Positions 14,304-58,673 of a stretch of DNA of 64,000 nt are shown piece after piece. This DNA comes from Prochlorococcus sp. AG-347-I06 (GTDB lineage Bacteria > Cyanobacteriota > Cyanobacteriia > PCC-6307 > Cyanobiaceae), in NCBI GenBank assembly GCA_003281605.1, contig QCBM01000005.1, positions 19,791 through 83,790 of the forward strand. Direction: 5' to 3'. The position numbers and the translations under genes were made by a program. Under the pieces are notes generated by a model. The model ran no database searches, had not been told where the DNA came from, and saw only the letters and a program-made list of their open reading frames with translations. The first letter of the stretch is position 1. Every line of letters begins with the position of its first letter.

Positions 14304-14308
14304 TTTTT

Positions 14309-14358: not shown

Positions 14359-14382
14359 ATGGCCGTGTTGTCACATCGAAAC

Positions 14383-40796: not shown

Positions 40797-40878
40797 GGGT
40801 CGGTGCCCGAGTGGTTAAAGGGGGCGGACTGTAAATCCGCTGGCTCTGCCTACGTTGGTTCAAATCCAACCCGGCCCA
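40797..40878 (+). tRNA. tRNA-Tyr(GTA)
   Basis: GGGTCGG/CCGGCCC acceptor stem, CTGTAAA anticodon loop, long variable arm, GGTTCAAATCC T arm. Confidence 0.98.
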
Positions 40879-40888: not shown

Positions 40889-40960
<72 letters not shown>

Positions 40961-41088
40961 TGGCCAAAAGCATTGCTACAATAGAAGTTATAAGAAATTA
41001 GTTAAAATTGATTATTAGCCAGATATATCTAGATATGTCGACAATATAGCAATTCTGCACTAATATTTGCACTAATTACACTTTTAAA

Positions 41089-42438
41089 ATGACAAGTGCT
41101 AACAGCACTTCTTGGGAAAAAGAATTAAGAAAAAATATCTGCACTAATTTTGGTCGTGGAATTAGGGTTAATGGCGAAAATAGCGGTAGAACAAAACTTT
41201 TATATGTTTATAACGAAGGGCTAGGTTCTGCCAACAAAAGAACCTCTCAAACCTTACCCATCGAATGGAAGAAAACCTCAGGTATAGAAATCCTAAAAGC
41301 TATCGAATTTATAAAACCATTAATAGTTGAAAAAAACCTAACTCTTAAAGAAGCCACTAGAAGATGGAAAGCTCAATTCATTGGAGAAGCAACGAAACAA
41401 CCTAATAAAAGTTGGAATGATTTCTTATTAATAAGGCCTCTAAATAAAAATGATGCCAACTATGAAAAGGACTTAAAAGTTTATCTAAATACTGCATCAA
41501 AGGTTGATCAGTTCATGCAAACCAAACAAGGTTTAACAAGTAAAACTGAAAAAGATTGGGCTAGAAGAATTAGTAGATTCTTAGAAGAAATGAATAATAA
41601 TCCCTCTCCAAATACAGGAGTTGAACTTATAAAGAAATTATCGGATAAATACCTTATTGATATAGAACCTGATGAGAGGAAAAGATATATCAATGCTTGG
41701 TGTGAGATTTTAAAGTATGGAATCGAAAGACATTCACAGAACGAAAAAAGATGGCAACCGCCAAGCGAAGACTATAGAAAAGAACTAATTGGAAAATCTA
41801 ATAGGACTAAACAAGATAAATTAACTCCATATATAGAGGAGCATGATTTACTTAGATTATTAGATGATCTTGAATCAAGAGATTCTTCATTATTTCTAGC
41901 AGTTGGCTTAATTTCTATTTTTGGCTTAAGGCTTTCTGAACTTGCAGTTCTTAGAGCTGTAGATGGCAAACTATATGTTGGTAATATCAAAAATAATATA
42001 AACACAAAAGCAAAAAAGGAAGATAGAAGAGTTTTTCCTATGGATCTTTTGGCGAGGAAAAACCTCGGCCAAAACCTTATAGAACTATTCGAATCAAAAA
42101 AGATTACATTACCGATGCCAGTCTTAAATCAAATAGAAATGGTAAAAGATAAAAATAAATATGGTGATGTTGGTCAATCACTAAGGCAATTAATTGAAAG
42201 GAATAAGGTATGGAGAGAAATAATTAAAACTAACCCTGAAATAACACCTTATAGTTTGAGACATAGATATGCCCATCAATGTCATAAGGGTTCCACTATC
42301 CCAATATCAGTAAAAGATGCGGCGGCGGCAATGGGTCATTCTGTTGAAACTCATAATTCTTTTTATGGTTCTTACACAACGGAACTTAGCTTAGAAAAAG
42401 CATTTGAAAGACATTTAAAAAACAGGATTGAGGTTTAG
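41089..42438 (+). CDS. Tyrosine recombinase/integrase
   Basis: GLRLSEL (catalytic R), YSLRH, MGHS and HNSFY (catalytic Y). Confidence 0.92.
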   Translation: MTSANSTSWEKELRKNICTNFGRGIRVNGENSGRTKLLYVYNEGLGSANKRTSQTLPIEWKKTSGIEILKAIEFIKPLIVEKNLTLKEATRRWKAQFIGEATKQPNKSWNDFLLIRPLNKNDANYEKDLKVYLNTASKVDQFMQTKQGLTSKTEKDWARRISRFLEEMNNNPSPNTGVELIKKLSDKYLIDIEPDERKRYINAWCEILKYGIERHSQNEKRWQPPSEDYRKELIGKSNRTKQDKLTPYIEEHDLLRLLDDLESRDSSLFLAVGLISIFGLRLSELAVLRAVDGKLYVGNIKNNINTKAKKEDRRVFPMDLLARKNLGQNLIELFESKKITLPMPVLNQIEMVKDKNKYGDVGQSLRQLIERNKVWREIIKTNPEITPYSLRHRYAHQCHKGSTIPISVKDAAAAMGHSVETHNSFYGSYTTELSLEKAFERHLKNRIEV

Positions 42439-42775
42439 TTTTAACTGACGTAGGAAGGAATATATGTAGACATATCAATAAGCAGTATTAATATATATTT
42501 AACGCTTAGCGTTCTTCAAAAAAGTGGCTGAGAATTGACCAAATGGTTATGACAGCTTAAGAGCTTATGTTGGTAAAGAGTAGTTGATGTCAAATATCAT
42601 CACCCCAACAGGCAGCCACATAATTGCCAGCCCTAGTACCACCTACGACAAATTTTGGGGTCTTGAAGCATAGTTAAAAAATACTATCGGTTGCTCAGCC
42701 AAGGTACTACAGACTGAGAGACTTATTCATTATTGAGAACGAGTTTGAAGGTCGGGAAAAATATTTTTTAATCTT

Positions 42776-43024
42776 ATGAATAATCAAACTTGGCTGCCCA
42801 CAAGGGAAGCAAAAATAGTTCTAGGTTGTAGTGCCCAATTCCTAAAGAAAAATCGCGATATTTACGGTGGTTTTCTTAGAGAGGAAGACCATTATATTTT
42901 TGGCGCTAGTGTAAACTCTTCCATTCTTTGGAACGTAAAAGAAATTTTAAAAGAGTTTCACTATAGAGGACGGCTTATCAGGAAGGGTCAAGACTTAATA
43001 AGTGAATTACAAAAGGAGGTTTAA
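42776..43024 (+). CDS. Excisionase-like/HTH DNA-binding protein
   Basis: WLPTREAKIVLGCSAQFL winged-helix-like start; lies between integrase and helicase. Confidence 0.65.
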   Translation: MNNQTWLPTREAKIVLGCSAQFLKKNRDIYGGFLREEDHYIFGASVNSSILWNVKEILKEFHYRGRLIRKGQDLISELQKEV

Positions 43025-43026
43025 AA

Positions 43027-44121
43027 ATGAACCCCTCAGATTACACAGGTTGCGACATTGATAAAATACAGCTAATTGATAATGAAAATTATCAAAATCG
43101 TTATCACAATAAATCTTTAAAAGACTACTCCTCGGATGTAGGAAAAGGTCCTGAAAATATAGCTGATTTATTAAAAACAAAAAGTTCAAAAGAATGGATT
43201 GTCGATTCCTTTGGAGCTGGAGGTTCATGCGTTTTACTTGCGGGCGAAACAGGATCTGGTAAAACCTCATTTATTTATCAAATGGCTTATGCAATATCTA
43301 CGGGGAATATTTTTTTGGAAGAAATCACTACCCAAAAAAATAAAGTACTAGTTGTTCAATCAGATGAAAGTAAAAATAATGCTCTTGATAAGTTGGAGTT
43401 AATGGATATAGATGGACCAAACTCCAACCTTTATTTCTATTTCGCAGAAGATGGATGGGACAGACTAAATATTAAAAATCTGAAAGAGGTAGTTTTAAAT
43501 CATTCTTTTAAAGTTGTATTGCTTGATAGCGTTACAACATTATTAACCAATAATGGTCGTTCAATGCGAGATCCTGAATTTGCAACGCCTCTTTATGAAT
43601 TAAATAAATTAGCAAGTGAATTAAATATCCTTATTATTTGTACAGCGCATTTAAGAAAGCCAGAGGGAATTAGACATGAAGTATCTATACATGATGTAAT
43701 TGGAGCAATTACACAGAGTGGAGCTGTTAGCGATATTTGGGGTATTTGGGTACCAACAAAACAAAGCCATGAAAATCACTTTATTTTGAAATGCTTAGGG
43801 AAAAGAAACTGTAGAAAAGGAATTATTTGGAATTTAAAAGGCGATGAAGAAGATTTCAGTTTCACTTTAGAAAGTGTAGGAGAAGGAGAATTATTACCCT
43901 CCAAGAATCAAGAATTAAGTTTCTTGATTCTTGATTTCTTACATACAAAAAATGAATTTAAAACGATAAGAGAAATTGCTAATGCGACTTCGTTTAATCA
44001 GGAACATACTAGACGAATTTGTAAAAAACTTTTTCTAGAAAAAGAAATTTCTAGGGATAAAGATATCTCTAAAGGAGGAAGACCAGCCTGGAGGTACGGA
44101 CCTAAGACTTTTCCTACTTAA
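43027..44121 (+). CDS. RepA/DnaB-like AAA ATPase (replicative helicase-like) with C-terminal wHTH
   Basis: GETGSGKT Walker A, VLLDS Walker B, AHLRK; C-terminal TIREIANAT...RRICKKL...GGRP. Confidence 0.8.
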   Translation: MNPSDYTGCDIDKIQLIDNENYQNRYHNKSLKDYSSDVGKGPENIADLLKTKSSKEWIVDSFGAGGSCVLLAGETGSGKTSFIYQMAYAISTGNIFLEEITTQKNKVLVVQSDESKNNALDKLELMDIDGPNSNLYFYFAEDGWDRLNIKNLKEVVLNHSFKVVLLDSVTTLLTNNGRSMRDPEFATPLYELNKLASELNILIICTAHLRKPEGIRHEVSIHDVIGAITQSGAVSDIWGIWVPTKQSHENHFILKCLGKRNCRKGIIWNLKGDEEDFSFTLESVGEGELLPSKNQELSFLILDFLHTKNEFKTIREIANATSFNQEHTRRICKKLFLEKEISRDKDISKGGRPAWRYGPKTFPT

Positions 44122-44160
44122 GGCCTGTAGTTTAGAAATTTAATTTCTTTAGACAAAAAA

Positions 44161-44184
44161 AAGCCATTTGATATCAAATGGCTT
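44161..44184. terminator. Perfect 24-bp palindrome between convergent genes
   Basis: AAGCCATTTGAT|ATCAAATGGCTT; adjacent A run gives a T tail on the minus strand. Confidence 0.75.
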
Positions 44185-44215
44185 AAGTCCTTTTAATTTT
44201 GAGAGTAGGGTTCAT

Positions 44216-46117
44216 TTATAGAACCCTCCTCAATTCGTCTTCCCCACATTTTTCTATGAAACTTTTTAACTTAGCTGGTGGCCATCCAGTTTTAGCTGTC
44301 AAGATTTTGAATTTTTCTAATTCTTTAATCTCTATTCTTTGGCCATCATAAATATGATGGGTTTCTTTACCACTAGCTGAATGCGTTTCAGCAGATATTG
44401 AGATTGAATCTCTATCACCACCTTCAGAAGGAGGACGATTTCGATCTTCATGCTCAACTACAGATTCGAATTGTGCTTTCTCATCCATTAATGATTCAGC
44501 AAACAATTTGATGTTTACGCTCTCTGGAGATAAGTCTCCATTATCATCAGGGACCAAATCAATTCCATCTTCATACTGGTAGAAGTATGCTGTCTGCATA
44601 TCATGAGATAAGTCAGATTCAGTTCTTAGTATTCTTCCAAGTATTTGAGTCCATCTTAATGATGCCTGAATTGTGGTTAAATAAACTCCAACTCTAAGGA
44701 ACTTAATATCTACTCCTTCAGAAATTTTGCCTACGGCAATAATCCATTTAGGTCTATTCTTAGTTCTATTCGTCTTGAAGTTTTTAATAGCGCGTTTGTC
44801 GTCACCAGTTTCTGAATGAACAACAACAGCTTCTTCATTGGTCCACTTTTTTAAGGCCTTCGCAACTGCATCAGCATGGGGAATACTGTCACAAATAATT
44901 AATCCTCCAGCCCATTCATGCGATCTTCTACATTCATCTAATTGATCGTTTGCAGCGATCAAAATATTACGAACATATTCTGTACCATGTGGATGCCTTT
45001 CAGTACCGCATTCAATACAAGCCTTTCTTCTCAACCTTTTAATGATTTTTCTAAGCCTTCTATTGTCAACGATCCTCTCACCTGTAACTGAATCAAACTG
45101 ACATTCGTAAATTTGATCAATATTATCGGTAAGTTTGTGTTTAACTTTTTGTGCTGAAACAAGTTGGCCATCACGCTTTTCTTTAATAGTAAAATCAACA
45201 ACTCCGTTCCATTGTTTAATAACAACATCTCGGACAACTTGATCACCTAAAGCGCAATACCTCGTATTCCATTTCGTTATTCCATATCCATAGGAATATG
45301 CATGGGGTGGACTTAATTCAATTTGGTTCCTGTAATATCTCACCCAAGGTAATTTTTGACGATCACTTCTAAATGGAGTTCCACTTGTCATTAATCGAGC
45401 AACCGTATTACCAAAAGCTAAAGAGAAACATTCTCCCCATCTTTTTTGTTCACCTAAGTGATGACATTCATCAGCAATAATTAATGTCTTATACCTCTTA
45501 CAAACATCTCGTAAGATTTCAGCATTAACCATATTTCCAGAATCATTGTTCCGATAACCTATTTTTGCGTAAGTAGTAACGATACCGTCAAAACCTTCTG
45601 CGCAAGAATTTTTCTTATTAAGATGCAGACCAATTGTTCTAGCATCATCTTCCATTTGATCTCTTAAAAAATCACTTGGAACAGTAACAATAATTTTTTC
45701 TATAAAACCTTGCTCCTTTAAATATGCACCTATAAGTAGAGAGGCAAGAGTTTTTCCTGATCCTGGGAATGCGTGAAGAATAAAAGCATTTATATCTTCT
45801 TTTGGCTTGTTTATCTGCTGAACCATAGACATATAGCATCTTTGAAGAAATTCTTCTTGCCATTTCCTAAGTTCAAAGCCAGGGGGAAGCCAATTACTTA
45901 CATCTATTTTTAAAGATGCTGATTTTTTAAGATTGCATGATCGGCATAGAGCTTGACCATTACTTAATTCAGTTTTTCCTCCTAATGAATAAGGAGTTAT
46001 GTGATCAGCGTGAAAGTCATCGAGACTTATTTCACATGAGCAATTTTGGCATTTACCTTTTGCTCTTAAAAACAATTCTTGTCTTTGTGATTGAGTAAAG
46101 AATCTGTTGTCAGTCAT
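44216..46117 (-). CDS. HNH endonuclease fused to SF2 (ResIII/DExH-like) helicase
   Basis: CQNC...HADHITP...SNGQALCRSCN; AFPGSGKT, DECHH, SGTPFRSD, EGVDI and QILGRILR. Confidence 0.9.
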   Translation of the reverse strand: MTDNRFFTQSQRQELFLRAKGKCQNCSCEISLDDFHADHITPYSLGGKTELSNGQALCRSCNLKKSASLKIDVSNWLPPGFELRKWQEEFLQRCYMSMVQQINKPKEDINAFILHAFPGSGKTLASLLIGAYLKEQGFIEKIIVTVPSDFLRDQMEDDARTIGLHLNKKNSCAEGFDGIVTTYAKIGYRNNDSGNMVNAEILRDVCKRYKTLIIADECHHLGEQKRWGECFSLAFGNTVARLMTSGTPFRSDRQKLPWVRYYRNQIELSPPHAYSYGYGITKWNTRYCALGDQVVRDVVIKQWNGVVDFTIKEKRDGQLVSAQKVKHKLTDNIDQIYECQFDSVTGERIVDNRRLRKIIKRLRRKACIECGTERHPHGTEYVRNILIAANDQLDECRRSHEWAGGLIICDSIPHADAVAKALKKWTNEEAVVVHSETGDDKRAIKNFKTNRTKNRPKWIIAVGKISEGVDIKFLRVGVYLTTIQASLRWTQILGRILRTESDLSHDMQTAYFYQYEDGIDLVPDDNGDLSPESVNIKLFAESLMDEKAQFESVVEHEDRNRPPSEGGDRDSISISAETHSASGKETHHIYDGQRIEIKELEKFKILTAKTGWPPAKLKSFIEKCGEDELRRVL

Positions 46118-47063
46118 TTTTAAATACCTCCAAAATTTGGTTTGCTAATTGAATTGCGGAATTTTTTCCGATTCTTTTGATAATTTTTTTTGCGACTACT
46201 GATGCGTTACCTCTTACACCTACATAGCTGTAAGTTCCATACGCTTTAGCAAGTCCTGCTTCTCTTTCTGCTGCTGCTACCGAGGGAATTAAACCTCTTA
46301 AAAGTCTGTCCAAAGTATTAGATACTCTTTCAGTAGAGGTCCCTTTGCTTTTGCATAAAGAGGGGTTATTTTTTAATTTTGTTAACCTGCTTATCAAGCG
46401 AGTTTTACTATCACTTGGAAGTGAGTCTTTATCTTTTAAATAACTACTCGATGCTTCAAAGAGATTTGTTTGTACTGGGGCATCTCCTGCTGGTGATGTA
46501 TCTAAGGAATTTAATAATTCCTTTAAACGTTCATGTGCTTTAGACCATTCAGGATCAACTTGTTTCATTAAAGAGAGAAGTGTTTCCCATCCGATCATTT
46601 TGGATTTACCAAATCTAAAATCATCACTTAGCTGCTCCAAAGTATTAGGTTCTTCAGTAGCAATAAGTTCTATTAGATAAGTCACTGCCTCACTTGCATC
46701 TTTAGCTGAAGGTTGATGACCAGTTAAGGTTCTCATCAATTCATCAGGTTCAACGCCAAGACAATCTCTTATCCACTCAACAGCTCTTTTGTATTCCCTT
46801 ACTTCTCTCCTACTTTTGATAGAAGGCATAAAGGCAACTTTTTCCCAAGCTTTTTGCTTGAAACAATCAACTAAGGCAGTTGAAAGTGCTGCTGAATTTT
46901 TAGTAGTCCAGTGCTCTTTGAGTATTTGCGTACTCAGAGTTTTAATTTGTGTATCTCTTGGTAGAGAGGACAACCAGCTTTGAGCTTCAATGGTTGCAGT
47001 TTTTTCGTGTAATGTGTTCACTTTGTTCCTGGGGCTAGGTTTAGATGTAAGCCTTAAGCTCAC
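46110..47063 (-). CDS. Hypothetical protein, translationally coupled to the HNH-helicase
   Basis: 8-bp overlap with the helicase start; GTG at 47063 preceded by GGGAGAG (ORF track starts at TTG 47087). Confidence 0.8.
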   Translation of the reverse strand: MSLRLTSKPSPRNKVNTLHEKTATIEAQSWLSSLPRDTQIKTLSTQILKEHWTTKNSAALSTALVDCFKQKAWEKVAFMPSIKSRREVREYKRAVEWIRDCLGVEPDELMRTLTGHQPSAKDASEAVTYLIELIATEEPNTLEQLSDDFRFGKSKMIGWETLLSLMKQVDPEWSKAHERLKELLNSLDTSPAGDAPVQTNLFEASSSYLKDKDSLPSDSKTRLISRLTKLKNNPSLCKSKGTSTERVSNTLDRLLRGLIPSVAAAEREAGLAKAYGTYSYVGVRGNASVVAKKIIKRIGKNSAIQLANQILEVFKND

Positions 47064-47102
47064 AATCAAATACTCTCCCAAAAGCAACTAAAATATATTT
47101 TT

Positions 47103-47119
47103 TACGTGCGAAAAACCAA
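47103..47119 (-). promoter_or_regulatory. 17-bp motif copy A (TTGGTTTTTCGCACGTA on the minus strand)
   Basis: Exact reverse complement of 49318-49334; upstream of the leftward operon. Confidence 0.75.
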
Positions 47120-47189
47120 TTTTTATGCCAGGATTAGCTTATTAAAATTAAAAAATTTAATTATCAAGTAAATATTTTTTTATCTAAAA

Positions 47190-49316
47190 ATGAATGAGAG
47201 ACTAAGATGTCATATGTTTATTGGAATACCTGCAAGCGGGAAATCAACTCTTGCAAATGAACTGGCGCCATTGATAAATGCAGAGATTTTATCAACAGAC
47301 AAAATTAGAGAAGAACTTTATAAAGACGAAACGATTCAAGGAAATTGGAACGAAATTGAATCTTTACTTCATGAAAGACTTAAAGAATACATAAGACAAA
47401 ATAAGCCAGTTATCCTAGATGCTACTTTTGCAATGAGACCTTGGCGTCTAACAATTACTCAAAATCTTTTATTTGATAAAGAAATTGAATGGATTGGCTG
47501 GTGGTTTAAAACACCATTAGAAATTTGCCTTGAATGGAATCAATTAAGAGAGAGGAAAGTCGATGATCCAGTAATTAAAAGATTTGCGGCAGCCCTCTCA
47601 AATAAAATTTTCTCGCCAGATTTATCTGAAGGTTTTGCAACTTTAATAAATATTGATCCATCATCAACAGAAGATATTACAAAAGAAATTAAAAGCAGAC
47701 TTTCGAATTTAGATAGAAATATTACCCAAAGAAAAAATAAAGATTCAATAAAAGAATTGCACGGATACTCAAAATTATTAGATTTTGAGAGACTTCTATA
47801 TCTAATGCAACTGTTAATTAGATTTCCAGATTTAAGTGCGGATGATAAAAAAACAAAATTAGAAATGGAACAAATATGTAACCCAATACCTCAAGGATCT
47901 ATTGAAAACAAAGCCTCTAAATTTTTAAGTACTTTGCATGGCAGTTGTTATTCTGATATTGAAAAATTACATGATGATCTCAAGTGGCTTGATAAGCAGG
48001 GATTTATTAACCATAAAGAAGCAACAGGTAAGCTTGAGCCGCCTCCTGAAGACAAAAATTTTAATAGAGAACTTGGAGGGCTATCAAGATATTCAGAAAA
48101 AGATGCATTTATTAGAGTCATGTCTTTAATCAGATATATCTTACATAACCCTTTTGATGACAAAAGAATTAAAGATGAAAACAATAAGAAGGGTATTAGT
48201 TTGCACGAACACTATATTTCTAAATTAGAAAATATTTATTTCAAAGAGGAAAGAGATACTCTTAGAAAAGATATTGAAAAAATTCTAACTCCATACGGAT
48301 TTAGGGATAAAAATGATAATACAAGGCATGGTTATGTATTAGGAACTGCAGTTTTATCAAGGAACAGACTTGAAGATATTTTTCAGATTATTGATCAAGC
48401 AAAAAATAAATTAAATGATCCAACCATTTCAAGTGTGCACACTAAATTAAAAGAAAGGTTTAAGTGGGCTGGATTTAATTTAGACAATTATCCAGTCAGA
48501 TCATTTGCAAACAAATCTGTTATTAATCCAACTTTTACAAAAAAAGATTCCTTAGCAGTTGATACAAATACTGAAGAACTTGAAAATGCTATAAAGAATG
48601 GTTTTTTAATTGAAATTGAGTTTTTTAGAAGTGCAGGTAAATTTAACGAAGAAGAAAAAGAAGGTTCTCAAAACAAATTGGTTTGGCCAATCCAACTACT
48701 TTTTAATAATATTGGTTGGTATTTGGCCTATGAAGAAAAAACCTTTAGGGATGAACCTGGTCTTTTAAAAACTGAAAGAATTGATCGTATTGCTCTTAGG
48801 AGAATTGATAACTCAAAAATAAGAAATAGAAAAGATAGAGACAAAGCACTTAGAAAAGTTCAAAAATTGGTAGAAATTTCGGGGAGTATTTATTTTGGTG
48901 AAACTGTTGAAAAACAAATTGCAGTACTAAAAAGTAGTGAAGAAAATATTAAAAAATTACTTATTACAGTTCGCTTCAGAACAACTGAAAAAATATTTCG
49001 CTTTCTTCGAGAAGAACTTCAAAGATATCCCTTAAATCAAATGCGTTTAGCAAAGGGTTCAAAGAAAGTATTTTATGAAAATTGGGAAGAACCAGAAAGT
49101 GGGAACTTTGTACTAGAAATGATTAAAGATGATCCTTACCCATATCCAGTTGAGATAGATTTACCTTCATGGACAGTAAAAAATGATAACGATTTTAGAA
49201 GATGGCTATTAGGTTTTAGAGAGGGAATAATTATTGAAAGTCCTACAGAATTTGTAGAAGAGATTAAGTCAAACATATCAAAACTAGGAGAAATATACAA
49301 AACCAAAAATAATTAA
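47190..49316 (+). CDS. AAA_33/PNK-like P-loop kinase fused to HTH-WYL-WCX domains
   Basis: GIPASGKST, STDKIR and ILDAT; WPIQLLFNNIGWYLAY; FRRWLLGF...IESP. Confidence 0.85.
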   Translation: MNERLRCHMFIGIPASGKSTLANELAPLINAEILSTDKIREELYKDETIQGNWNEIESLLHERLKEYIRQNKPVILDATFAMRPWRLTITQNLLFDKEIEWIGWWFKTPLEICLEWNQLRERKVDDPVIKRFAAALSNKIFSPDLSEGFATLINIDPSSTEDITKEIKSRLSNLDRNITQRKNKDSIKELHGYSKLLDFERLLYLMQLLIRFPDLSADDKKTKLEMEQICNPIPQGSIENKASKFLSTLHGSCYSDIEKLHDDLKWLDKQGFINHKEATGKLEPPPEDKNFNRELGGLSRYSEKDAFIRVMSLIRYILHNPFDDKRIKDENNKKGISLHEHYISKLENIYFKEERDTLRKDIEKILTPYGFRDKNDNTRHGYVLGTAVLSRNRLEDIFQIIDQAKNKLNDPTISSVHTKLKERFKWAGFNLDNYPVRSFANKSVINPTFTKKDSLAVDTNTEELENAIKNGFLIEIEFFRSAGKFNEEEKEGSQNKLVWPIQLLFNNIGWYLAYEEKTFRDEPGLLKTERIDRIALRRIDNSKIRNRKDRDKALRKVQKLVEISGSIYFGETVEKQIAVLKSSEENIKKLLITVRFRTTEKIFRFLREELQRYPLNQMRLAKGSKKVFYENWEEPESGNFVLEMIKDDPYPYPVEIDLPSWTVKNDNDFRRWLLGFREGIIIESPTEFVEEIKSNISKLGEIYKTKNN

Positions 49317-49317
49317 T

Positions 49318-49334
49318 TTGGTTTTTCGCACGTA
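49318..49334 (+). promoter_or_regulatory. 17-bp motif copy B (TTGGTTTTTCGCACGTA)
   Basis: Runs into TAGAAT (49333-49338, -10-like) upstream of the rightward operon. Confidence 0.75.
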
Positions 49335-49371
49335 GAATATTTTTTTTTAATAAAATTTTGAGATTCTAAGG

Positions 49372-49866
49372 ATGTCTCACATTAATCCAATGACATCCAA
49401 CAACAAATTCAACAGCTCTGAAAATGATCACCCTGAAAATCAGGGAGACTTTCAAAGCAGCAATCCAAATGTTCCTAATTCTTATTTTGAATTACTTGCC
49501 ATGCAAGGCGGAGTTAATACAAAAACAAAGAACATTAACGAAATTCAGGATCTACCTGAATTAATTCCAGTTATAGAAAACTGTCTTAACTTAATTGCTC
49601 GTACTAAGGAGAAAAGTATTCGCAAACTAAATGAGAATATGCGACTTCTTGATGAGTTAAAAATTATCGAATCTAAGCGGTTTCAAAAAATGAGGCATAT
49701 TAATTCTCATTTAATTGATGAAGAAATTCATGAGCTTATGAAGGACCAACATTATCTTGATAAATTAATTCAACTACTTGATATGAGTGATTGCAATCTG
49801 CATCGATTCATACCCCAATTAATTGATATTGAAAAAGTACTTAAAAACCTAAACGCGGAGATTTAA
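49372..49866 (+). CDS. Hypothetical protein (orphan A); start may be ATG 49390
   Basis: Helical C-terminus; N-terminal motif shared with the next gene. Confidence 0.75.
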   Translation: MSHINPMTSNNKFNSSENDHPENQGDFQSSNPNVPNSYFELLAMQGGVNTKTKNINEIQDLPELIPVIENCLNLIARTKEKSIRKLNENMRLLDELKIIESKRFQKMRHINSHLIDEEIHELMKDQHYLDKLIQLLDMSDCNLHRFIPQLIDIEKVLKNLNAEI

Positions 49867-49870
49867 CCTA

Positions 49871-50329
49871 ATGACAAACAACAAAAACAATGATGAGATC
49901 AAAAGCACTCATCCCGAAGCCTTTGAAGATATAAAGGTTAGCGATTCTGTTCCTAATTCTTATAAAGAACTTTTAGAACTTCAAAAACCAAAGATTGAAT
50001 CTATTGATGATCTTGTAAGTGAAGGCAAAATTGATCCTGAAAAAGCTAAATTTTTAAAGCTATGTACAGAAACTTTTCAATCAGTTCTTGATCTTTTAAA
50101 TAAATTAAAATCTAGTCCTGGTCAAGATATCTTTATTGCAACTATGCTTATTCAAAGAGTTTACTTATTTAATAAAACTTACTTAGAAAAAGCGCAAAAA
50201 AATAAAGAGTTATCAGAACATGAGTTTAATAACTTATCGGAAAGTAATGCCAAATTAAAATGCATATTTCATATGCTCGTTCCGGGAGATGGAGAACTTG
50301 GCGAAAATGGACTCAATTTTACTGTTTAA
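49871..50329 (+). CDS. Hypothetical protein (orphan B)
   Basis: 4 nt after orphan A; shares HPE...VPNSYxELL. Confidence 0.75.
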   Translation: MTNNKNNDEIKSTHPEAFEDIKVSDSVPNSYKELLELQKPKIESIDDLVSEGKIDPEKAKFLKLCTETFQSVLDLLNKLKSSPGQDIFIATMLIQRVYLFNKTYLEKAQKNKELSEHEFNNLSESNAKLKCIFHMLVPGDGELGENGLNFTV

Positions 50330-50341
50330 GGAGGGAAGTAA

Positions 50342-51388
50342 ATGACGAACTCAAAATTAAACAATCCGGGTATTATTTATTTCGTGCAAGAAAAAGATCT
50401 TCTCGGATACAGCACTCCTAATTACGTAAAAATTGGCTTAGTTAAAAGCAATGAGATTGGGCGATCAGGAGAGGATAGAAAGGATGAACACCAAACAGGA
50501 AATCCTAGACCTCTCTACATAGCCCACTCAATTACAACTAAAGCAAGTGTTTCAAAATTAGAAAGTTTAATACACCAAAAACTTTCGCTTCACAGGCACA
50601 GAGGTGAGTGGTTTGTAAAACCAAATGGAGAAATAGATCCCTTCATTAAAGAATCAAATCTTATAAATGAACAACTTCAAGATCAATTAAAAAATGATCT
50701 TAAAATTGAAGAACTAAATTCTCAAGTTAGTTCAGGTAAAACCACAAAACCCTCTTCTGAAGCTCAAGACATTCACAATGAATTGCTTAGAGTTATTAAA
50801 GAAAAAAAAGAAATCGAAACTCAAAAGAAAATTATTGAACTAAAGCTAAGACTATTATCTGGTAGTTCAAATAATTCTATTGAGGGAGTATTTCAATGGA
50901 TTTTAAAAAGAGAATCACAAAGATTTGATGCCAAGAATTTTGAAAAAGAAAATCCTGAATTATTTGAAAAATATGCAAAAGAATCTCAAAGCTCAATCTT
51001 TAGAATCCAAAAAATAAATTCCAATATCAATAAAGAATTAATAGAAGAATTAAATAGTAAAGTTAGCCATTTAGATGCCTCTGAAAAGAGCACAAAAATT
51101 GCAAGAAGCAATGAAGCAGAGGATCTTCACAGAGAGTGGCTTACTTTGCTTTCACAACAACAACCTCTTGAACTTAAGAAAGAAAATCTTGTAAATCAAC
51201 TTAAAATATTATGTGATAATAATTCAGGCCTTGAGAATATATGCTCTTGGAAAAGAGAACCAATTAAAAAAATTAAGAAAAGTGATCTATCAGAATTAGA
51301 TAAAGATATAGTTAATAAATATCTTGTAAAGGTAAAATCAACTTCCTCCTTTATGTTAAATACCTTTAGAGCATATAAATTTAAGTAA
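50342..51388 (+). CDS. GIY-YIG superfamily (T5orf172/MUG113-like) nuclease with coiled-coil tail
   Basis: IIYFVQE...VKIG...QTGNP...LESLIHQKL...RGEWF; SD GAGGGAAG. Confidence 0.85.
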   Translation: MTNSKLNNPGIIYFVQEKDLLGYSTPNYVKIGLVKSNEIGRSGEDRKDEHQTGNPRPLYIAHSITTKASVSKLESLIHQKLSLHRHRGEWFVKPNGEIDPFIKESNLINEQLQDQLKNDLKIEELNSQVSSGKTTKPSSEAQDIHNELLRVIKEKKEIETQKKIIELKLRLLSGSSNNSIEGVFQWILKRESQRFDAKNFEKENPELFEKYAKESQSSIFRIQKINSNINKELIEELNSKVSHLDASEKSTKIARSNEAEDLHREWLTLLSQQQPLELKKENLVNQLKILCDNNSGLENICSWKREPIKKIKKSDLSELDKDIVNKYLVKVKSTSSFMLNTFRAYKFK

Positions 51389-51401
51389 GGAGTATATTCT
51401 A

Positions 51402-54380
51402 ATGGCAAAGGAAAATTTTCCATATCAACTTTTCATTGTTGGAGCAGAATATTCCAGAAATGATATTAATCAAAGACTTGTCAATTCAAAAGTAAGTCAG
51501 CAGAGTGGAGTTTCAAGTTTTGCGGATTCATTAATTCTTTTTGCAACATTAGAAAAAGAAGGAAGACCTGAAGAAATACAGTATAAAGATTTTTTTAAAT
51601 TTAAAAACAAAATATTTAGTGAATTAAAGAAAAAAAAAGGAACTTCTGTTTTACCTGTAGAAGGCTATTTCCCAATATTTGAAAAGGGAGAAATTAAATT
51701 TTTCTGGGAAAGTCAAAATCCTTCAGGAAACTTTGGAACCCCAGAAAAACCATTGCTTTCCAAATTAATTAAAGGAGAGCTTAAAGGTTATTTATTTGCT
51801 CGAATTGAGGAGAAAACAAAAGGTAAAAGTAATCGATTTTTATACTGTGGTTCGATAGAAGCAGAAAGTTATGACGACAAAGCAAATGGAGAAAGACCTT
51901 TTGGAGTTAAATTTTCTTGTAATGATATAGGGCCAAAGCATGTAAAAAATGATTTAAAGATTTTACTGGAATGGCGTCCAAAAGATATTTCGACAATTAC
52001 TAAAGCAGAAGAACTTGCTTCTTCTTGTTTGGCAAATGAAAAAGTAAAACTTAAGGAAATAGAGAATGAGCTTTTTTGGAGTGGTTTTGAAACTCCAGAA
52101 TTGGCAACAAAGATATTACTAGAAAAATTTAATAAATACTCACTAGAACCTTCACCATATATATTTACGAAACTTGTCTGTAGACACTTTTCTGGTATCA
52201 ATAAATCCTCTTTTTTTACGCCACAAGTCTTAGAAAATTTTATTTGCAACTTTCTAAAAAATTTAAAAATAAAATCTGTTCTTGATCCATCAATGATAAA
52301 TGGAAGTACTTTATATAAAATTTCAAAAGAATTAAAACCTCAAGAGATTTATGGGTATGAAATAAATAAAGACCTCTTTAGACTATCTGAAGTTTTTAAT
52401 AAAAATGCCACGCTTAAAAATGAATATTTCCCAATTAATCAAGACTTAGAAAAAAGATTTGATTTAATAGTTTCTTTTCCTCCGATGATGATGAGGCATC
52501 CCTCAGTAAATAAAGAGATAATAATAAATGATAAAAAACTTGCATTTAATCTTCACAGAGAGACTGAAATCATATTTTCTTCTTTAAGAAATTTATCTGA
52601 TAATGGTTTAGCATTATTTATTGTTTCTCCAGGCTTTTTATTAAAAACTAGAAGTAGAAATATTTTTGAATTTATAAAAGATATTGGATTCAGTTTAGAA
52701 GGAATTTTTTATATCCCTGCTGGGACTTTCAAACCTTTTTCTGGAATTGAAGGCAGATTGGTAATAATTAAGAAAAAAATTCAATCTAAATTTATATTTG
52801 AAGGACAATTATCTTTTAATAAAGACAGAGATCAAAAATTAATAAATAATTTTTATGAATCTAAAGCTGATGAAGATCCTGAATTAGGTTTTTTAAGAGA
52901 ATTTGAAAGTAAAACTGATTTAAGAGAAGCTATCTTCCTTGAAAAGTTATCGCTAATTAATAAAAATATTGATATTGAGGTTAAACATTTAGAAGAAATA
53001 TCTGAAAGTATTTTCTATGCGACTTTAGAGAAAATAATAGAACATCAAAATTCTATATTTATTTTTCTCAATGGAAATAATAATGTATATGAATATGTAG
53101 CTGACATTGATACCAAAAAATTTGATTCTGGAATTAGGAATCAATCTATAGCGCAAGTAGTTATAAACCCTAAAAGAATTAATAAAAAAGTTTTAGTAAA
53201 AATCCTACAAAGTAAAAGAGGTAAACTTGCTTTTCAAGCTTTAACATCTTCTTTTGCTTCTCCTGGAAGAACAAGAATTTCTTTAAGTTCAATAGGTAAA
53301 TTACTTTTATGTATACCTGATAAAAAAGAGCAAGATCAATTAGAAATAATCGATCAAAAATTATTCGATATTAAATTTAAATTAAGTAACTTCGAAAATA
53401 ATCTTTGGGAAAAAATAGATCAACCCAAAGAATCTATTAAAGAATTTAATAAGATTATTAATCAAAAATATCAAAAGGAAACTAAAGATGATTTAGATAT
53501 AAGAATACTTCCCTTTCCATTGGCAAGTATTCTTCAAACAGTAAAAAGTTTTAATGGTATTCCTATAAAAATGTCATTACATATTGAATATTTCTTTGAG
53601 GCTCTTAGTCAATTTTTGGCAATTTATATAATGAGTGGTTTTTATATTAACGAAGAAGAATTTAATTCAATATGGACAGAAGTCTCAAATTTTCTAAAAG
53701 AAAAAAATCATAATATTGGCTCAAGTACTTTTGGTACCTGGAATATAATTTTTAACCTACTAACGAAAAAAATAAACCAAGATATAAAGGAGGAAGAAAG
53801 TATGAAAGAAGTTTGGCTCAGTAGATTAGCAATAGAAAGCGAAGAATTTTTAAATGTATTAACCGGTAAAAAATTACTTGGGATTTTAATGAGGGCAAAC
53901 AGATTTAGAAATATGTGGAGAGGACATTCAGGAGCAATTGGAGATGATAATGCAAAAGAGAGATACAACACATATAACGAAATGGTAAAAGAAGTTTTAA
54001 ACTTATTTAGAAATTTTTGGATTGAGTCGCCTCTTGTGATTCCTGGAGAAAGTACATATAAAGACGGAAAGTTTGATTATTTTTGCCAATCTGCAATGGG
54101 AGTTACAATGCCCTTACCAAGAAATAAATACAGTTTAAAACAACCTCTTGAAGATGGAATGATGCATATAGTTTCTACTGTAAGTGGGAAATCATGTAAA
54201 TTACTCCCATTAATTAAATTTGGAGAAAGCCCAAGCAAAGTTGATAATGCATGTTATTTCTATAACAGGCGTGATAATGACCAATCACAAAGATGGATTT
54301 CTTATCACAATGAAAATAAACCTGAGAGACCATTTAGTGATCCTGAAGTAAATGCATTACTAGATAAATTAAGTAACTAA
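51402..54380 (+). CDS. DUF3427-like + degenerate N6-adenine methyltransferase + TRD-like + HEPN-like fusion
   Basis: YSRNDI...FFWESQ...FLYCG; FFTP, VLDPSMINGS, YGYEIN, DLIVSFPPM; LLLCIPDKKEQ; RNMWRGH. Confidence 0.7.
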   Translation: MAKENFPYQLFIVGAEYSRNDINQRLVNSKVSQQSGVSSFADSLILFATLEKEGRPEEIQYKDFFKFKNKIFSELKKKKGTSVLPVEGYFPIFEKGEIKFFWESQNPSGNFGTPEKPLLSKLIKGELKGYLFARIEEKTKGKSNRFLYCGSIEAESYDDKANGERPFGVKFSCNDIGPKHVKNDLKILLEWRPKDISTITKAEELASSCLANEKVKLKEIENELFWSGFETPELATKILLEKFNKYSLEPSPYIFTKLVCRHFSGINKSSFFTPQVLENFICNFLKNLKIKSVLDPSMINGSTLYKISKELKPQEIYGYEINKDLFRLSEVFNKNATLKNEYFPINQDLEKRFDLIVSFPPMMMRHPSVNKEIIINDKKLAFNLHRETEIIFSSLRNLSDNGLALFIVSPGFLLKTRSRNIFEFIKDIGFSLEGIFYIPAGTFKPFSGIEGRLVIIKKKIQSKFIFEGQLSFNKDRDQKLINNFYESKADEDPELGFLREFESKTDLREAIFLEKLSLINKNIDIEVKHLEEISESIFYATLEKIIEHQNSIFIFLNGNNNVYEYVADIDTKKFDSGIRNQSIAQVVINPKRINKKVLVKILQSKRGKLAFQALTSSFASPGRTRISLSSIGKLLLCIPDKKEQDQLEIIDQKLFDIKFKLSNFENNLWEKIDQPKESIKEFNKIINQKYQKETKDDLDIRILPFPLASILQTVKSFNGIPIKMSLHIEYFFEALSQFLAIYIMSGFYINEEEFNSIWTEVSNFLKEKNHNIGSSTFGTWNIIFNLLTKKINQDIKEEESMKEVWLSRLAIESEEFLNVLTGKKLLGILMRANRFRNMWRGHSGAIGDDNAKERYNTYNEMVKEVLNLFRNFWIESPLVIPGESTYKDGKFDYFCQSAMGVTMPLPRNKYSLKQPLEDGMMHIVSTVSGKSCKLLPLIKFGESPSKVDNACYFYNRRDNDQSQRWISYHNENKPERPFSDPEVNALLDKLSN

Positions 54381-54422
54381 ATCTAGTGATACAAATTTAC
54401 TTCTTGCTGAACATTATTTTCT
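54329..54422 (+). repeat. 94-bp direct repeat, copy 1 (hairpin 54345-54403)
   Basis: 87/94 identical to 57546-57639 by manual alignment. Confidence 0.95.
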
Positions 54423-54432
54423 TTAATGCTAT

Positions 54433-57390
54433 CTACAGTGATGAATTTATATTTAGGATTAGAAGTCTCCTGGCAAGTGAATGATTTGTATAGTATTTAT
54501 AAACATCAGCATTCAATTTTATTTTATTAGAAAACCTAAAATAATTTGGTAATTTCCCTTTTGTACTTTCATTCCTACTAGCATAAAAGTCATATGCAGA
54601 ACTTGTTATGCTGTAAGTCTTATTATCATTATCTTCAAAAATAGCTGATTTTTTATCCAATCCTGCATAATTTTTAAATTTTAAAATTACATTTTTCCTC
54701 TCATACCATCTTGTATTTAATATTTCTAGTTTATTGTAGTTGGATATTTGTTTAAGCTCTTTAAGCAAAAAGATAATATCTTCAAAAAATTCTTTAGTTG
54801 TTGTCACTTTAATAAGCTGTTCATTCAGCTTTGAACCACTATATTTTTTTTGTTGATAATAATAACTTTCATTATATGCCTGTGAAAAATAATTTTTATT
54901 AAGCAGGAGAACCATTTTACAAAAATCTTCTTTGAAAAATAGATTAACTGTTTTACTTAAAGATTTTCTTGTAAACGCATTAACAGAAGAAATTAACCAC
55001 CACATAAGACTATTTCTGTTTGATGAGTAATAAGGTGAATTTCCATCAATATCTAGATGTTCATAACATTTCAAAAGTAGATCACTAATATTGTCAAAAT
55101 ATTCTTGGTTAATGTTTTCACCTACCATTTCATTCATAAGGTGCCGTGCATGTCGGTTATATGCATCTGCTATAAGTGTCAAAAACAAAGATTTACTTGT
55201 ATCTTTTCTTTCTGACCAATCTTCAGTGACTTTATAGACATCCTCAAATTTATTTTGCCTGATCAATAGTCTTGCAAATGCAGTCATAAATTTAGAGTAT
55301 GGTAATGAGTCAGGAAGAGGGGTATCTAGCGAATCAAAAAATCTGAATCCATATTCACAAGCTCTACTATCTTTAAGTGCATCAAATCTATAAAAAAGCG
55401 TTAATAAAGCATTAGGATCATTTCCATCAGCTGCAAGCTGTAAGTGCTTTATACATTGAAGTTGATCATTAAATTCTTGATAAATCAAACCTATAAGACG
55501 ATAAACAGCAGGTGGGACTGATTGAGCTCTATTTATATCTTTAAAATCCTCAAGATCTTTCAATGCATCTCTTAGTTTTGCAAATGCAACTTCTTTTAAA
55601 TCGTTAGAAACAAGGTCTTCATCTTTAATTTTATAAAAATGTCCTAATGCACCAATTGCCTCATTACAAATCACCCTACAAGTATCATCAACCTGTGTTT
55701 CAGGTCTTAGAAAGCTGAATTTCATCTGATTTGACCAACTATTATTTTCAGAATTTAGTATCGAAATATTCTTATTAATTTGATCATCCTTATAAATATT
55801 CAACCTAAATCTAAGATCTTCATTTAAAGGATATATGCTTAAATAAGATCTAAAGTTATCATTCAATTTTATACAATCCATAGAAGATGTACCCCTGAAG
55901 GCCAATCCCAAGTCCTCAATTTCTGCAATGGATTCAGTAACACTGTCAATATCAACTGAAAGTCTCTTATTAATATCTATTTTTCTAGATTCTCCTAAAA
56001 CAAAAAGTACCTCAAGACAGTCTTTACTTACATTAGATAATGAACCTACAAGTTTTGTAAATGAGAATGAAATAATACTATCTGCACCACATTGAACTGA
56101 TTCAATTAAGCTTGTATTATTTTTCTTTTGGTATCCAATTGCATTTTTTATTGCAAGTGGGTTACAAAATAATTTATTAGAGTAGTCTGAAGCTTCTTCG
56201 TATGAAATTTTTTTTCCTAATTTATCTAAATAAACTTTTTGGAATAATTTTGCAGCACTTTTAAGTTCTAAAGGTCCTAGTGAAATAATACTGCTAGATT
56301 CTCTAATTCTTATTCTTGAAGTTATTATAATTTTCCAATCTCTTGGTAACTCATTTTCAAATTCAGAAAACACCTTATAAATATCACTGGACAGTGTCTC
56401 AAGATTATCTACCCATAATAAAAATCTGTAGTTTCCAAAGGTATTTAAGAAGTCTTCCCAAAGTGAATTAATATCTTTTCCATCTTCAAAGTTAAATACT
56501 TCTTGAAAAATATTATTTTCGCTAAATTCTGTATTAGCGAATTTATAACCTTGCAATAATTGCTCTTTAATTCCCTCCATTGTTAAATTAATAATATCTT
56601 TTCTGACTACACCCTCCTCTAAATATTCCTCTTTCAGTGATGAGTATAAAATACAATCAATTTCTTTAGAATCTTCATCAGAAAACTTTAATTCATTTAA
56701 AACAGACAATGTTAAAGCTGTTTTACCTGTTCCTCCAGCACCAAAAATACTTACACTTGGTTTTCTTGGATTTAATAAATAATTTTTTATTTCCTCTGAA
56801 AGTTTTTCTCTCCCGATAATTTCATCGTAATCAGGCATTGGTAAATTATTCGGAATTTCAGTTAATTTACTCTCTTCTATTTCAACTAGATCAAGGTTCC
56901 CTTTTTTTGCTGCATAATATCTTTCAATTACATTTATAAAACCCAGTTGTTTAATTACAGGATCAAGTGCTAAAGCTTGTACTCTTAGCCAATGAACTGG
57001 GTGATATTCATTCCCAGGGTGAGCGAAAGATTGAGATCTTGTTTTATAAATTTGTAAAACATTTATCAATTGATCTAACCTTTCATAGTATTTTTGTTTC
57101 GAACTTCCCTGTGAAACTTGTTTCGCTAAAGATGGCAATTGAGAAAGATTTGATTTTCTGATTAACTCTTCTTTATTTCTTGGGTTCCTTCTATATGTTT
57201 CTGAGAAATATCTTTTACATTTTAGGCCTGCTCCAGATTCAGTATCAACCGAATCTATATTAGAAATTATTTTATCTACCAAACTTTTCTCTAGAGAACC
57301 TAGAACCATTTGTATTCTAGTTGCATCTAGGAATTGATCATCTTGATCAAACGAGTAGATCTCTTCATTTTCTACTGCGCTTAAAGTCAC
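54433..57390 (-). CDS. NLR-like STAND protein: HEPN-like N-terminus, NB-ARC NTPase, helical C-terminus
   Basis: RSQSFAH (Rx5H); PNNLP...IIGRE; GAGGTGKT; LWVDNLET; IITSR; CNPLAI; TPR-like helices. Confidence 0.8.
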   Translation of the reverse strand: MTLSAVENEEIYSFDQDDQFLDATRIQMVLGSLEKSLVDKIISNIDSVDTESGAGLKCKRYFSETYRRNPRNKEELIRKSNLSQLPSLAKQVSQGSSKQKYYERLDQLINVLQIYKTRSQSFAHPGNEYHPVHWLRVQALALDPVIKQLGFINVIERYYAAKKGNLDLVEIEESKLTEIPNNLPMPDYDEIIGREKLSEEIKNYLLNPRKPSVSIFGAGGTGKTALTLSVLNELKFSDEDSKEIDCILYSSLKEEYLEEGVVRKDIINLTMEGIKEQLLQGYKFANTEFSENNIFQEVFNFEDGKDINSLWEDFLNTFGNYRFLLWVDNLETLSSDIYKVFSEFENELPRDWKIIITSRIRIRESSSIISLGPLELKSAAKLFQKVYLDKLGKKISYEEASDYSNKLFCNPLAIKNAIGYQKKNNTSLIESVQCGADSIISFSFTKLVGSLSNVSKDCLEVLFVLGESRKIDINKRLSVDIDSVTESIAEIEDLGLAFRGTSSMDCIKLNDNFRSYLSIYPLNEDLRFRLNIYKDDQINKNISILNSENNSWSNQMKFSFLRPETQVDDTCRVICNEAIGALGHFYKIKDEDLVSNDLKEVAFAKLRDALKDLEDFKDINRAQSVPPAVYRLIGLIYQEFNDQLQCIKHLQLAADGNDPNALLTLFYRFDALKDSRACEYGFRFFDSLDTPLPDSLPYSKFMTAFARLLIRQNKFEDVYKVTEDWSERKDTSKSLFLTLIADAYNRHARHLMNEMVGENINQEYFDNISDLLLKCYEHLDIDGNSPYYSSNRNSLMWWLISSVNAFTRKSLSKTVNLFFKEDFCKMVLLLNKNYFSQAYNESYYYQQKKYSGSKLNEQLIKVTTTKEFFEDIIFLLKELKQISNYNKLEILNTRWYERKNVILKFKNYAGLDKKSAIFEDNDNKTYSITSSAYDFYASRNESTKGKLPNYFRFSNKIKLNADVYKYYTNHSLARRLLILNINSSL

Positions 57391-57545
57391 AAAATTCTAA
57401 ACATTTTTTTTATGATAATCACTTTTTTTTTCAGTATCAAAAATTGTTATTTTCTAAAAATATTTATTTAGATATTAGATCAAAGACTTTAAATCATCTC
57501 TTGAAAAATAATCTTTTATTTTCTACAGCAAAACTAACCGACGAT

Positions 57546-57639
57546 ACCATTTAGGGGTCCTGAAGTAAATGCATTACTAGATAAATTGAGTAACTAAATC
57601 TAGTAATACAAATTTACTTCTTGCTGCATATTATTTCCT
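57546..57639 (+). repeat. 94-bp direct repeat, copy 2 (hairpin 57562-57620)
   Basis: 3217 bp downstream of copy 1; non-coding here. Confidence 0.95.
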
Positions 57640-57793
57640 CTGGCAATATAAGTAACCGACTCCAAAATTGGCACATCAACATAAGATGTTTCCCTTAATG
57701 GCCAAAAAGAACTGAAGGATTTGAGATCAGGGGATTTAATATTTTTCTTTCGGTTCAGCTGTTAAAAAGCTCCTACACACATACTGATAGACA

Positions 57794-58576: not shown

Positions 58577-58673
58577 TTGAATTAGGGAGTCTTCTTTTTA
58601 CCTTTGAGGATCATCAATAAAGGTAATCCAATAAGCATTAGACTCCCATCAATTAACAAAAAAATGTTCAGGT

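Follow-up and report, generated by a model that had tools for sequence, protein, structure and literature searches.

We analysed 64,000 nucleotides of Prochlorococcus sp. AG-347-I06 (assembly GCA_003281605.1, contig QCBM01000005.1, positions 19,791 to 83,790). This whole stretch is called the window, and all coordinates refer to it. Directly behind a tRNA-Thr gene, the window holds a tyrosine integrase gene, two further genes of a putative mobility module and ~13 kb of defence-like cargo, followed by a SIMPL gene. The segment from the tRNA to ~57.5 kb is probably an integrative element of the tycheposon family, seated in the tRNA-Thr(GGT) island of a high-light (HLII) Prochlorococcus. Prochlorococcus is the most abundant phototroph of the ocean and, to our knowledge, has no plasmids, no prophages and few of the classical defence systems. 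Tycheposons have been proposed as its main route of flexible gene gain.

The window is part of an HLII-type chromosome. Its G + C content is ~31%, and the dehydroquinase encoded by the flanking aroQ gene (40255-40701) is 93-97% identical to that of the nearest Prochlorococcus single-cell genomes and of strains MIT 9302 and SB. Downstream of aroQ there are two tRNA genes, both recognized by Rfam and ARAGORN: a tRNA-Tyr (40797-40878) and, just after it, the tRNA-Thr(GGT) (40889-40960, + strand; Rfam tRNA, 72.1 bits), for which the ARAGORN call was off by one base compared with Rfam. The tRNA-Thr is the presumed integration target and the left boundary of the element, which occupies the part of a genomic island nearest to the tRNA. 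For comparison we collected 80 related genomes around aroQ, 78 of which keep the tRNA-Thr end, and extended the search for junctions to 115 loci. Related genomes and loci are designated by L-numbers (e.g., L117, GCA_003279405.1; L119, GCA_003280515.1). Junction evidence from metagenomes came from Logan contigs.

Integrase and putative mobility module

The original prediction of a tyrosine integrase directly at tRNA-Thr was borne out. An intact open reading frame (ORF) of 449 aa (41089-42438, + strand) starts 128 nt past the tRNA end and reads away from the tRNA. It was recognized as an inward-facing tyrosine recombinase by profile, fold, PHROG and NCBIfam matches. Pfam gave no match even at E = 10, Phage_integrase included. 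The best family-level matches were to PHROG 216 "integrase" (1e-4) and to NCBIfam XerA (1.5e-7). Only 327 relatives turned up when 1.84 billion representative proteins were scanned exhaustively with HMMER. More than 120 cluster representatives were 93-99% identical to the integrase, every one of them 449 aa long. All relatives whose upstream flank could be read were located directly after tRNA-Thr, and those with an assigned origin came from Prochlorococcus single-amplified or isolate genomes.

An alignment of 53 relatives showed that R281, K301, R391, H417 and Y426 are conserved. The profile built from it matched XerC-like 4a8e best in the PDB (2.8e-8), and also Tn1549 Int, XerA and IntI4. 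The alignment-based AlphaFold (AF2) model had a mean predicted local distance difference test score (pLDDT) of 89, and Foldseek aligned it with XerA, lambda Int (including full-length chains), XerH and Cre, all at probability 1.0. Judged by alignment and predicted fold, the protein is a deep-branching tyrosine recombinase of the lambda-Int type, with a predicted lambda-Int-like N-terminal beta domain. It shares with the heterobivalent integrases of this type, which serve phages and genomic islands that insert at tRNA 3' ends, the catalytic fold, the R-K-R-H-Y residues and a tRNA target. Its N-terminal three-stranded beta domain resembles the arm-binding domain of lambda Int, and the full-length structure 1z1b was aligned over 430 columns. 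It differs from them in the missing Pfam match, in its low sequence identity to solved integrases (10-16%), in having Y388 where the HxxR box has its first His, and in attachment sites that are only candidates.

Between the tRNA and the integrase gene there are two regions of different conservation. The first is a variable "arm" (40961-41018, + strand), which begins with TGGCCAAAAGCATTGCTAC and was assigned to class C among the junction classes of the 78 genomes. Its first ~20 nt are several-fold commoner in metagenomes than the remaining element, the depth falling across the arm from 1519 to ~200. The arm start persists as a scar in genomes without integrase, and many genomes have deletion scars that retain only the first 20-75 nt, suggesting that decay by deletion is common. 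The second region (41019-41148, + strand), upstream of and reaching into the integrase gene, is common to other arm classes. It contains a palindromic CCAGATATATCTAGATAT at 41019-41036 and three exact copies of TGCACTAAT, at 41056, 41068 and 41140, both candidates for arm-type or operator sites.

Two genes follow the integrase. The first, orf82 (42776-43024, + strand; 82 aa), occupies this place between the integrase and AAA_25 genes of every sibling element and has homologues in 15 loci, with 42-91% identity. It had no Pfam match, and its similarity to the excisionase RdfS was weak and non-significant (E 0.65). From its position, orf82 may encode an excisionase, or recombination directionality factor, or else a regulator. 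The second gene (43027-44121, + strand) encodes an AAA_25/DnaB-C-like P-loop ATPase (PF13481, 2.2e-17) with primase/helicase and DnaB-like matches in PHROGs, and invariably follows orf82 in the siblings. Such an ATPase is a hallmark of replication modules, and a replication function is likely here too. The gene order int-orf82-AAA_25 was kept in L006, L026, L058, L074, L081, L088, L090, L091, L096, L116 and L117. The integrase, the Xis-like orf82 and the AAA_25 replication ATPase would together make up the mobility module of the element.

Composition and transfer of the cargo

The cargo occupies ~13 kb, from ~44.2 to 57.5 kb. It begins with an HNH-SF2 helicase gene (44216-46117, - strand; ResIII, HNH and Helicase_C domains), whose PDB sequence matches were to HNH nuclease domains only. 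This gene is overlapped by an ORF of 325 aa with no assigned function (46110-47087, - strand). PADLOC gave only partial matches for the pair (PbeA, Cas3, REase), and their synteny is retained in L058, L115, L117 and L119. Next come, all on the + strand, a gene for an AAA_33 kinase-WYL protein (47190-49316; AAA_33 and WYL/WCX domains, PADLOC WYL at 4.3e-15), two small ORFs (49372-49866 and 49871-50329) and a gene for a T5orf172/MUG113 protein recognized by its domain match (50342-51388). From the kinase-WYL to the T5orf172 gene, the order is the same in L102, L115, L117 and L119.

Downstream there is a gene for an N6-adenine methyltransferase of 992 aa with a type-I-specificity-like region (51402-54380, + strand; PF02384, PADLOC MTase_I/II and Specificity_I). 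This methyltransferase is a rare protein, with eight homologues found and 5 members in its 90% cluster, compared with 1349 in that of SIMPL. The last unit is a STAND-NTPase cassette with sharp ends (54413-57470, - strand), carrying a gene of 985 aa (54433-57390) with weak AAA_16 and NB-ARC matches. A direct repeat of 125 nt, 84% identical between its copies (54298-54422 and 57515-57639), brackets the cassette in the window and includes the final codons of the methyltransferase gene. L102, L103 and L119 carry this 3.06-kb single-gene cassette with 96-98.6% identity, inserted in other surroundings, and it appears in three contexts. In L119 a piece of the small-ORF module flanks it on each side, as would be expected had a circle been opened at another point.

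Attempts to name the cargo system by PADLOC, NCBIfam, Pfam and PDB sequence searches gave domain-level matches only. Neither the STAND nor the T5orf172 protein had a PADLOC match, and no significant PDB sequence match was obtained for the methyltransferase and STAND proteins. With its repertoire of helicase, WYL, T5orf172, N6-methyltransferase and STAND domains, the cargo is fairly described as "defence-like", as had been predicted; a defence function would be in keeping with this domain content. A sibling locus, L116 (13482-21350; integrase 97% identical), carries another defence-like set at the same position, consisting of a 1170-aa SNF2/NOV_C helicase, a 967-aa DUF1156 protein and a HEPN_Swt1 protein of more than 1000 aa.

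About 15 genomes have the arm class of the window, and four of them (L006, L026, L058, L074) have a full integrase with 97-98% identity; among the 78 genomes, other arm classes carry more distant integrases. The most informative sibling was L117. It has the integrase (94% protein identity), orf82, the AAA_25 gene, one extra gene, the HNH-helicase, a 303-aa ORF and the kinase-WYL gene, and continues with the two small ORFs and the T5orf172 gene. Its cargo is 94.3% identical at the DNA level to window positions 44176-50844, whereas the backbone of its host is only ~80% identical. The change from ~80% to 90-97% identity occurs at ~41019, less than 60 nt from the tRNA end. Despite the 94% identical integrase, the arm class of L117 differs from that of the window. 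Because of this identity contrast with the backbone, integrase and cargo appear to have travelled together into divergent hosts. By sequence comparison, this is direct evidence of their joint horizontal transfer from one Prochlorococcus lineage to another, divergent one.

L119 shares window positions 44624-51388 at 97.1% nucleotide identity, up to exactly the stop codon of the T5orf172 gene. In place of the 992-aa methyltransferase it then has an opposite-strand 965-aa gene of the Eco57I type. Afterwards it shares the STAND cassette (54413-57470) at 98.6% and continues into unrelated genes, without SIMPL. In L121 and L104 a 783-aa gene follows the methyltransferase, and in L104 SIMPL, on the + strand, is next. 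As read from these alignments, the cargo is a mosaic of swappable cassettes, the methyltransferase alternating with the Eco57I-type gene and the 783-aa gene with the STAND cassette.

The mosaic could also be read as island DNA of the ordinary kind, built up around a leftover integrase module as cassettes were exchanged and homologous stretches recombined, with no element and only coincidental linkage. Cassettes with sharp junctions, reused in other contexts and orientations, agree with such an origin, as do the 125-nt repeat around the STAND cassette and the lack of an attR. However, the genes from the integrase through T5orf172 are collinear in L117, L058 and the window, and the integrase ORF is intact. 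The jump in identity right beside the tRNA, in a host with an ~80% backbone, points toward transfer through an attachment site rather than by recombination in flanking core homology. We therefore regard chance linkage as very improbable, and favor an integrative element. Such an element most likely entered at the tRNA-Thr 3' end, was exchanged horizontally, and had its cargo remodelled by cassette replacement.

The right limit of the DNA in common with siblings is 57470. In metagenome contigs the depth was ~20000 for the tRNA flank, ~300 for the integrase, 14-120 for the cargo and ~2000 for SIMPL, with the step from cargo to SIMPL at ~57618. From the sibling identity limits and this depth step, the co-transferred segment reaches from just past the tRNA to 57470-57600. 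The originally predicted extent of 40960-57707 was roughly right, in that a variable, low-abundance segment runs from 40961 to ~57.5 kb; its right edge at 57707 was not. Among the Logan contigs there were also rearranged cassettes, as well as variants with deletions from 40996 to 58571 and from 41011 to 57604.

Repeats at tRNA-Thr and the SIMPL module

Two kinds of attachment repeat were found at tRNA-Thr in other genomes. The first is the 11-nt CGACGAGGGCA, which lies inside the tRNA (acceptor 3' strand plus discriminator) and brackets small integrase-less insertions in L004, L007, L057 and L076. These insertions, and one in metagenome run X1, are 0.25-1.7 kb long, with a GTCATAAC motif close to their right ends, and may represent miniature elements that are non-autonomous and depend on mobilisation in trans. 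The second kind is a partial or whole tRNA copy of at least 45 nt, present in L047, L053, L007 and L040. tRNAs with an element-type T arm were seen in L021, L040, L072 and L086.

A different repeat had been proposed for the window. According to the original prediction, a 16.7-kb element is bounded by 10-bp ATGGCCAAAA repeats, its empty site joins tRNA-Thr to AGAACTGAAGG...SIMPL, and it belongs to a class apart from tycheposons. The 10-mer does occur exactly twice in the window, at 40960 and at 57698-57707 just before SIMPL. In its favor, some insertions at tRNA-Thr use only the last 11 nt of the tRNA, and GGGCA|TGGCC forms an imperfect inverted repeat across the tRNA end. A recurrence of this kind is nevertheless no more than expected by chance: 0.39 copies were expected, two or more copies appeared in 5 of 100 shuffles, and, when all 40 ten-mers across the tRNA 3' end were allowed, an exact match to one of them was present in 52% of Markov-simulated downstream sequences.

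The second copy (57698-57707, + strand) also has a different context. Comparison with 22 other loci showed it to be part of a conserved block, TTAATGGCCAGATAGAACTGAAGG, which lies upstream of SIMPL in all of them, in either orientation and with or without the element. ATGGCCA is invariant in 21 of the 22 blocks. The window block is the consensus ATGGCCAGAT with two substitutions, so that the exact 10-mer exists in the window only; its closest analogues are ATGGCCAGAT or ATGGCCAAAT. We conclude that the copy at 57698 is a coincidence and not an attachment site.

The block belongs to a SIMPL module (57601-58853), which is island DNA and comprises the SIMPL gene (57794-58576, + strand; PF04402, E 2.7e-23) and a 63-aa ORF (58674-58865, - strand). 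The left boundary of the module is constant at 57601-57604, ~95-100 nt to the left of the 10-mer. Sibling-shared DNA ends at 57470. About 20 genomes have the module without an integrase, mostly inverted and beside the tRNA-Thr. SIMPL is resident island DNA outside the element. The boundaries of the module are identical in both orientations relative to tRNA-Thr. It is on the + strand in the window, L046 and metagenome run X1, where it lies behind a class-C arm, and in L096 and L104, where integrase and cargo of the same type precede it. The sequence of its left edge, AATACAAAnnTACTTCTTGC, is also found behind the stop codon of the methyltransferase.

The predicted junctions were equally missing. 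Among the 78 genomes keeping the tRNA-Thr end, the tRNA was joined to GAACTGAAGG...SIMPL in none. In those without integrase it mostly continued as CTCGCGGGATAGC (20 genomes) or as CTTGAGCAATTG (7), so that the comparison with element-less strains, which the original prediction had named as its own test, turned out against it. The attB (GAGGGC-ATGGCCAAAA-AGAACTG) and attP (CCCTTA-ATGGCCAAAA-GCATTG) junctions were present in none of the 115 loci, and the attP junction was not in viral contigs either. The separate class had been deduced by taking large serine recombinases as the defining feature of tycheposons, which is wrong: 910 of 937 tycheposons carry tyrosine recombinases, and Thr-ggt is a listed target (10.1101/2020.12.28.424599). 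Taken together, an element bounded by the 10-mer is extremely improbable. The idea of a crossover at the extreme tRNA 3' end holds for some insertions at tRNA-Thr. Their repeat, however, is CGACGAGGGCA inside the tRNA, with no second copy in the window.

In L066 the common CTCGCGGG flank is separated from the tRNA end by five extra bases (TGGCA), which resemble the start of the window arm. They may be the footprint of an imprecise loss.

The right end and the relation to tycheposons

Tycheposons are delimited by a full tRNA and a partial tRNA copy, and degenerate ones without clear boundaries have also been described (10.1101/2020.12.28.424599). Seven targets are reported, the tRNA genes Pro-tgg, Ser-tga, Ala-ggc, Thr-ggt, Arg-tct and one Met-cat, and the tmRNA gene; the tyrosine recombinases form a "deep-branching", tycheposon-specific monophyletic lineage (10.1101/2020.12.28.424599). 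The element in the window has a site-specific tyrosine recombinase integrase, its target tRNA-Thr(GGT) is in this list, and the integrase gene (+ strand) faces away from the tRNA and is followed by the AAA_25 primase/helicase-like ORF. It also agrees with tycheposons in its Prochlorococcus host, in an inward tyrosine recombinase that standard models miss, in a small replication module beside the integrase, with a cargo of over 10 kb behind it, and in its place at the tRNA-proximal end of an island. Related genomes hold degenerate remnants and partial tRNAs, again as in tycheposons. The small, Pfam-invisible integrase family would fit the "deep-branching" lineage. Judged by the published definition and target list, the kind of element is probably an already known one, and the attachment sites proposed earlier are wrong.

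Under this interpretation, the lambda-Int-like integrase would act on two sites, one carried by the element and the other in the 3' portion of the tRNA gene, and recombine them. Because of this proposed reaction, the integrated copy would start directly past the tRNA, with its integrase facing inward. All metagenome loci with an upstream flank reaching the tRNA were in the integrated form, and no circular junction was found among the Logan contigs.

Several results weigh against the assignment. A flanking partial tRNA copy, and with it an attL/attR pair, is lacking: within 23 kb downstream there was no second CGACGAGGGCA (up to 2 mismatches) and no longer tRNA-Thr 3' piece. A partial tRNA was likewise missing in every readable sibling of the same integrase type, within 9.7-11.5 kb of the tRNA. 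The integrase is 3-10 times deeper in metagenomes than the cargo, which implies loose linkage, and parts of the cargo are also found with no integrase nearby, e.g., in inverted order in L038. IMG/VR, queried with the integrase protein, the arm sequence and the predicted attP, contained no excised or viral-particle copy. Finally, PADLOC detected no complete known system (restriction-modification (RM), BREX, DISARM, Avs and others) in the cargo, only generic domain-level matches.

Further searches for a right end gave the same picture. On both strands of the window there were no partial tRNA-Thr pieces of 11-30 nt with mismatches, and L096, readable from the integrase through SIMPL and beyond, had no partial tRNA. 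Neither GTCATAAC, the right-end motif of the miniature insertions, nor the left-arm motifs TGCACTAAT and CCAGATATATCTAGATAT formed a cluster at the right end of the window element. Shorter cores (GAGGGCA, GGGCAT, and a 12-mer with up to 3 mismatches) gave chance matches in genes or in the methyltransferase 3'-end repeat. The right limit of the element is at ~57470-57600, the edge of the resident SIMPL module, with no detectable right attachment site. Precise excision is doubtful because this copy has no attR.

A fully active tycheposon might still have a cryptic right site with a very short overlap, so that the segment from 40961 to ~57470 would excise and transfer as a unit. The intact and highly conserved integrase, the evidence for horizontal transfer given by the L117 comparison, the lack of a partial tRNA also in siblings of the same integrase type, L096 included, and the existence of 11-nt cores at tRNA-Thr are all compatible with this. 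On the other hand, nothing core-like was seen at or near 57470-57600: the best candidate, CGACGATACCAT at 57539, has 3 mismatches in 12 positions and is accounted for by the methyltransferase 3'-end repeat. In addition, no TGCACTAAT or other left-arm motif cluster marks the right end, many genomes show an arm scarred by deletion and no clean empty site, and the metagenome depth is uneven across the segment. We consider full activity of this copy unlikely. Within the tycheposon family, the window copy would instead be anchored or decaying, or would have a core too short to see.

The differences from published tycheposons are the lack of the flanking partial tRNA and the cargo of helicase, methyltransferase, WYL and STAND genes. 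The description of tycheposons stresses nutrient acquisition and cargo like that of phage-inducible chromosomal islands (PICIs), and makes no mention of restriction or methyltransferase genes (10.1101/2020.12.28.424599). PICIs and other phage satellites resemble the element in their size of 10-20 kb, site-specific integrase, replication module and possible anti-phage role. PHROGs gave no capsid, terminase or packaging match for the ten ORFs scanned, those from the integrase to T5orf172, and, unlike PICIs, the window element had no copy in viral contigs. Defence islands and hotspots of mobile elements, with their RM systems, BREX/DISARM-like methyltransferases and Avs-type STAND proteins, have the same domain repertoire as the cargo, and sibling elements swap in the Eco57I-type gene or the SNF2/DUF1156/HEPN sets in a similar way. 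They differ from it in that the cargo completes no PADLOC system and its STAND protein has no match there.

Tentatively, one can go further. The tRNA-Thr tycheposons of this integrase type might be mobile, exchangeable anti-phage "cassette racks", in which the helicase-to-T5orf172 block and the methyltransferase/STAND modules form an undescribed multi-gene defence system that spreads from clade to clade, possibly via a minimal core that leaves no partial-tRNA scar. We see this as possible but less probable than not. A load of helicase, methyltransferase, WYL and STAND genes would widen the picture of tycheposons from nutrient acquisition to phage defence. The Eco57I-type or SNF2/DUF1156/HEPN sets of siblings at the same position, and the 90-97% identity between hosts with ~80% backbones, would extend the same picture. 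The cargo would also supply concrete candidate systems against cyanophages.

Other insertions may have left traces as well. In L106 (6860-7000), and in loose ends at window position 40865, a 15-nt piece of the tRNA-Tyr 3' end and a full tRNA-Thr follow non-syntenic genes. These genes encode a methyltransferase, a Glu/Leu/Phe/Val (ELFV)-type dehydrogenase, a DAO oxidase and a PDDEXK nuclease, and are present in part of the population. Junctions of this type suggest insertions at tRNA-Tyr, outside the seven targets listed above.

Further downstream in the window, at 61228-61286 (- strand), we found a tRNA-like fragment that spans the anticodon arm through the 3' end. It ends in ...AGCCCCGA and lies just left of pstS (61654-62625). 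It was the only tRNA-like match in a scan for partial tRNAs and had a weak Rfam tRNA match (13.4 bits, E 9.3). We take it to be tRNA-Pro-like, its loop TTTAGGA being one change from the UUUGGGA of tRNA-Pro. It looks like the distal attachment remnant of a second, tRNA-Pro-seeded island facing the tRNA-Thr island. A similar tRNA-like fragment lies directly beside the STAND cassette in L102 and L103.

Between SIMPL and this fragment there is an ORF of 576 aa (59476-61206) with three internal repeats of ~210 nt (60157-60641). It matched PHROG 681 "endonuclease" at 3e-71, as well as multi-copy genes of Klebsiella and Vibrio phages, and looks like a phage-type homing-endonuclease-like gene in the island. 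A terminator-like junction sequence of 57 nt occupies 61448-61504 and consists of TTGATTGACAGTCGATC and, behind it, a hairpin and a T-run. L096 has it again immediately behind the SIMPL module, and L032 has a more divergent form behind the arm. Unrelated to the element, a glutamine-II riboswitch aptamer was detected at 14306-14363 (RF01704, 63.7 bits).

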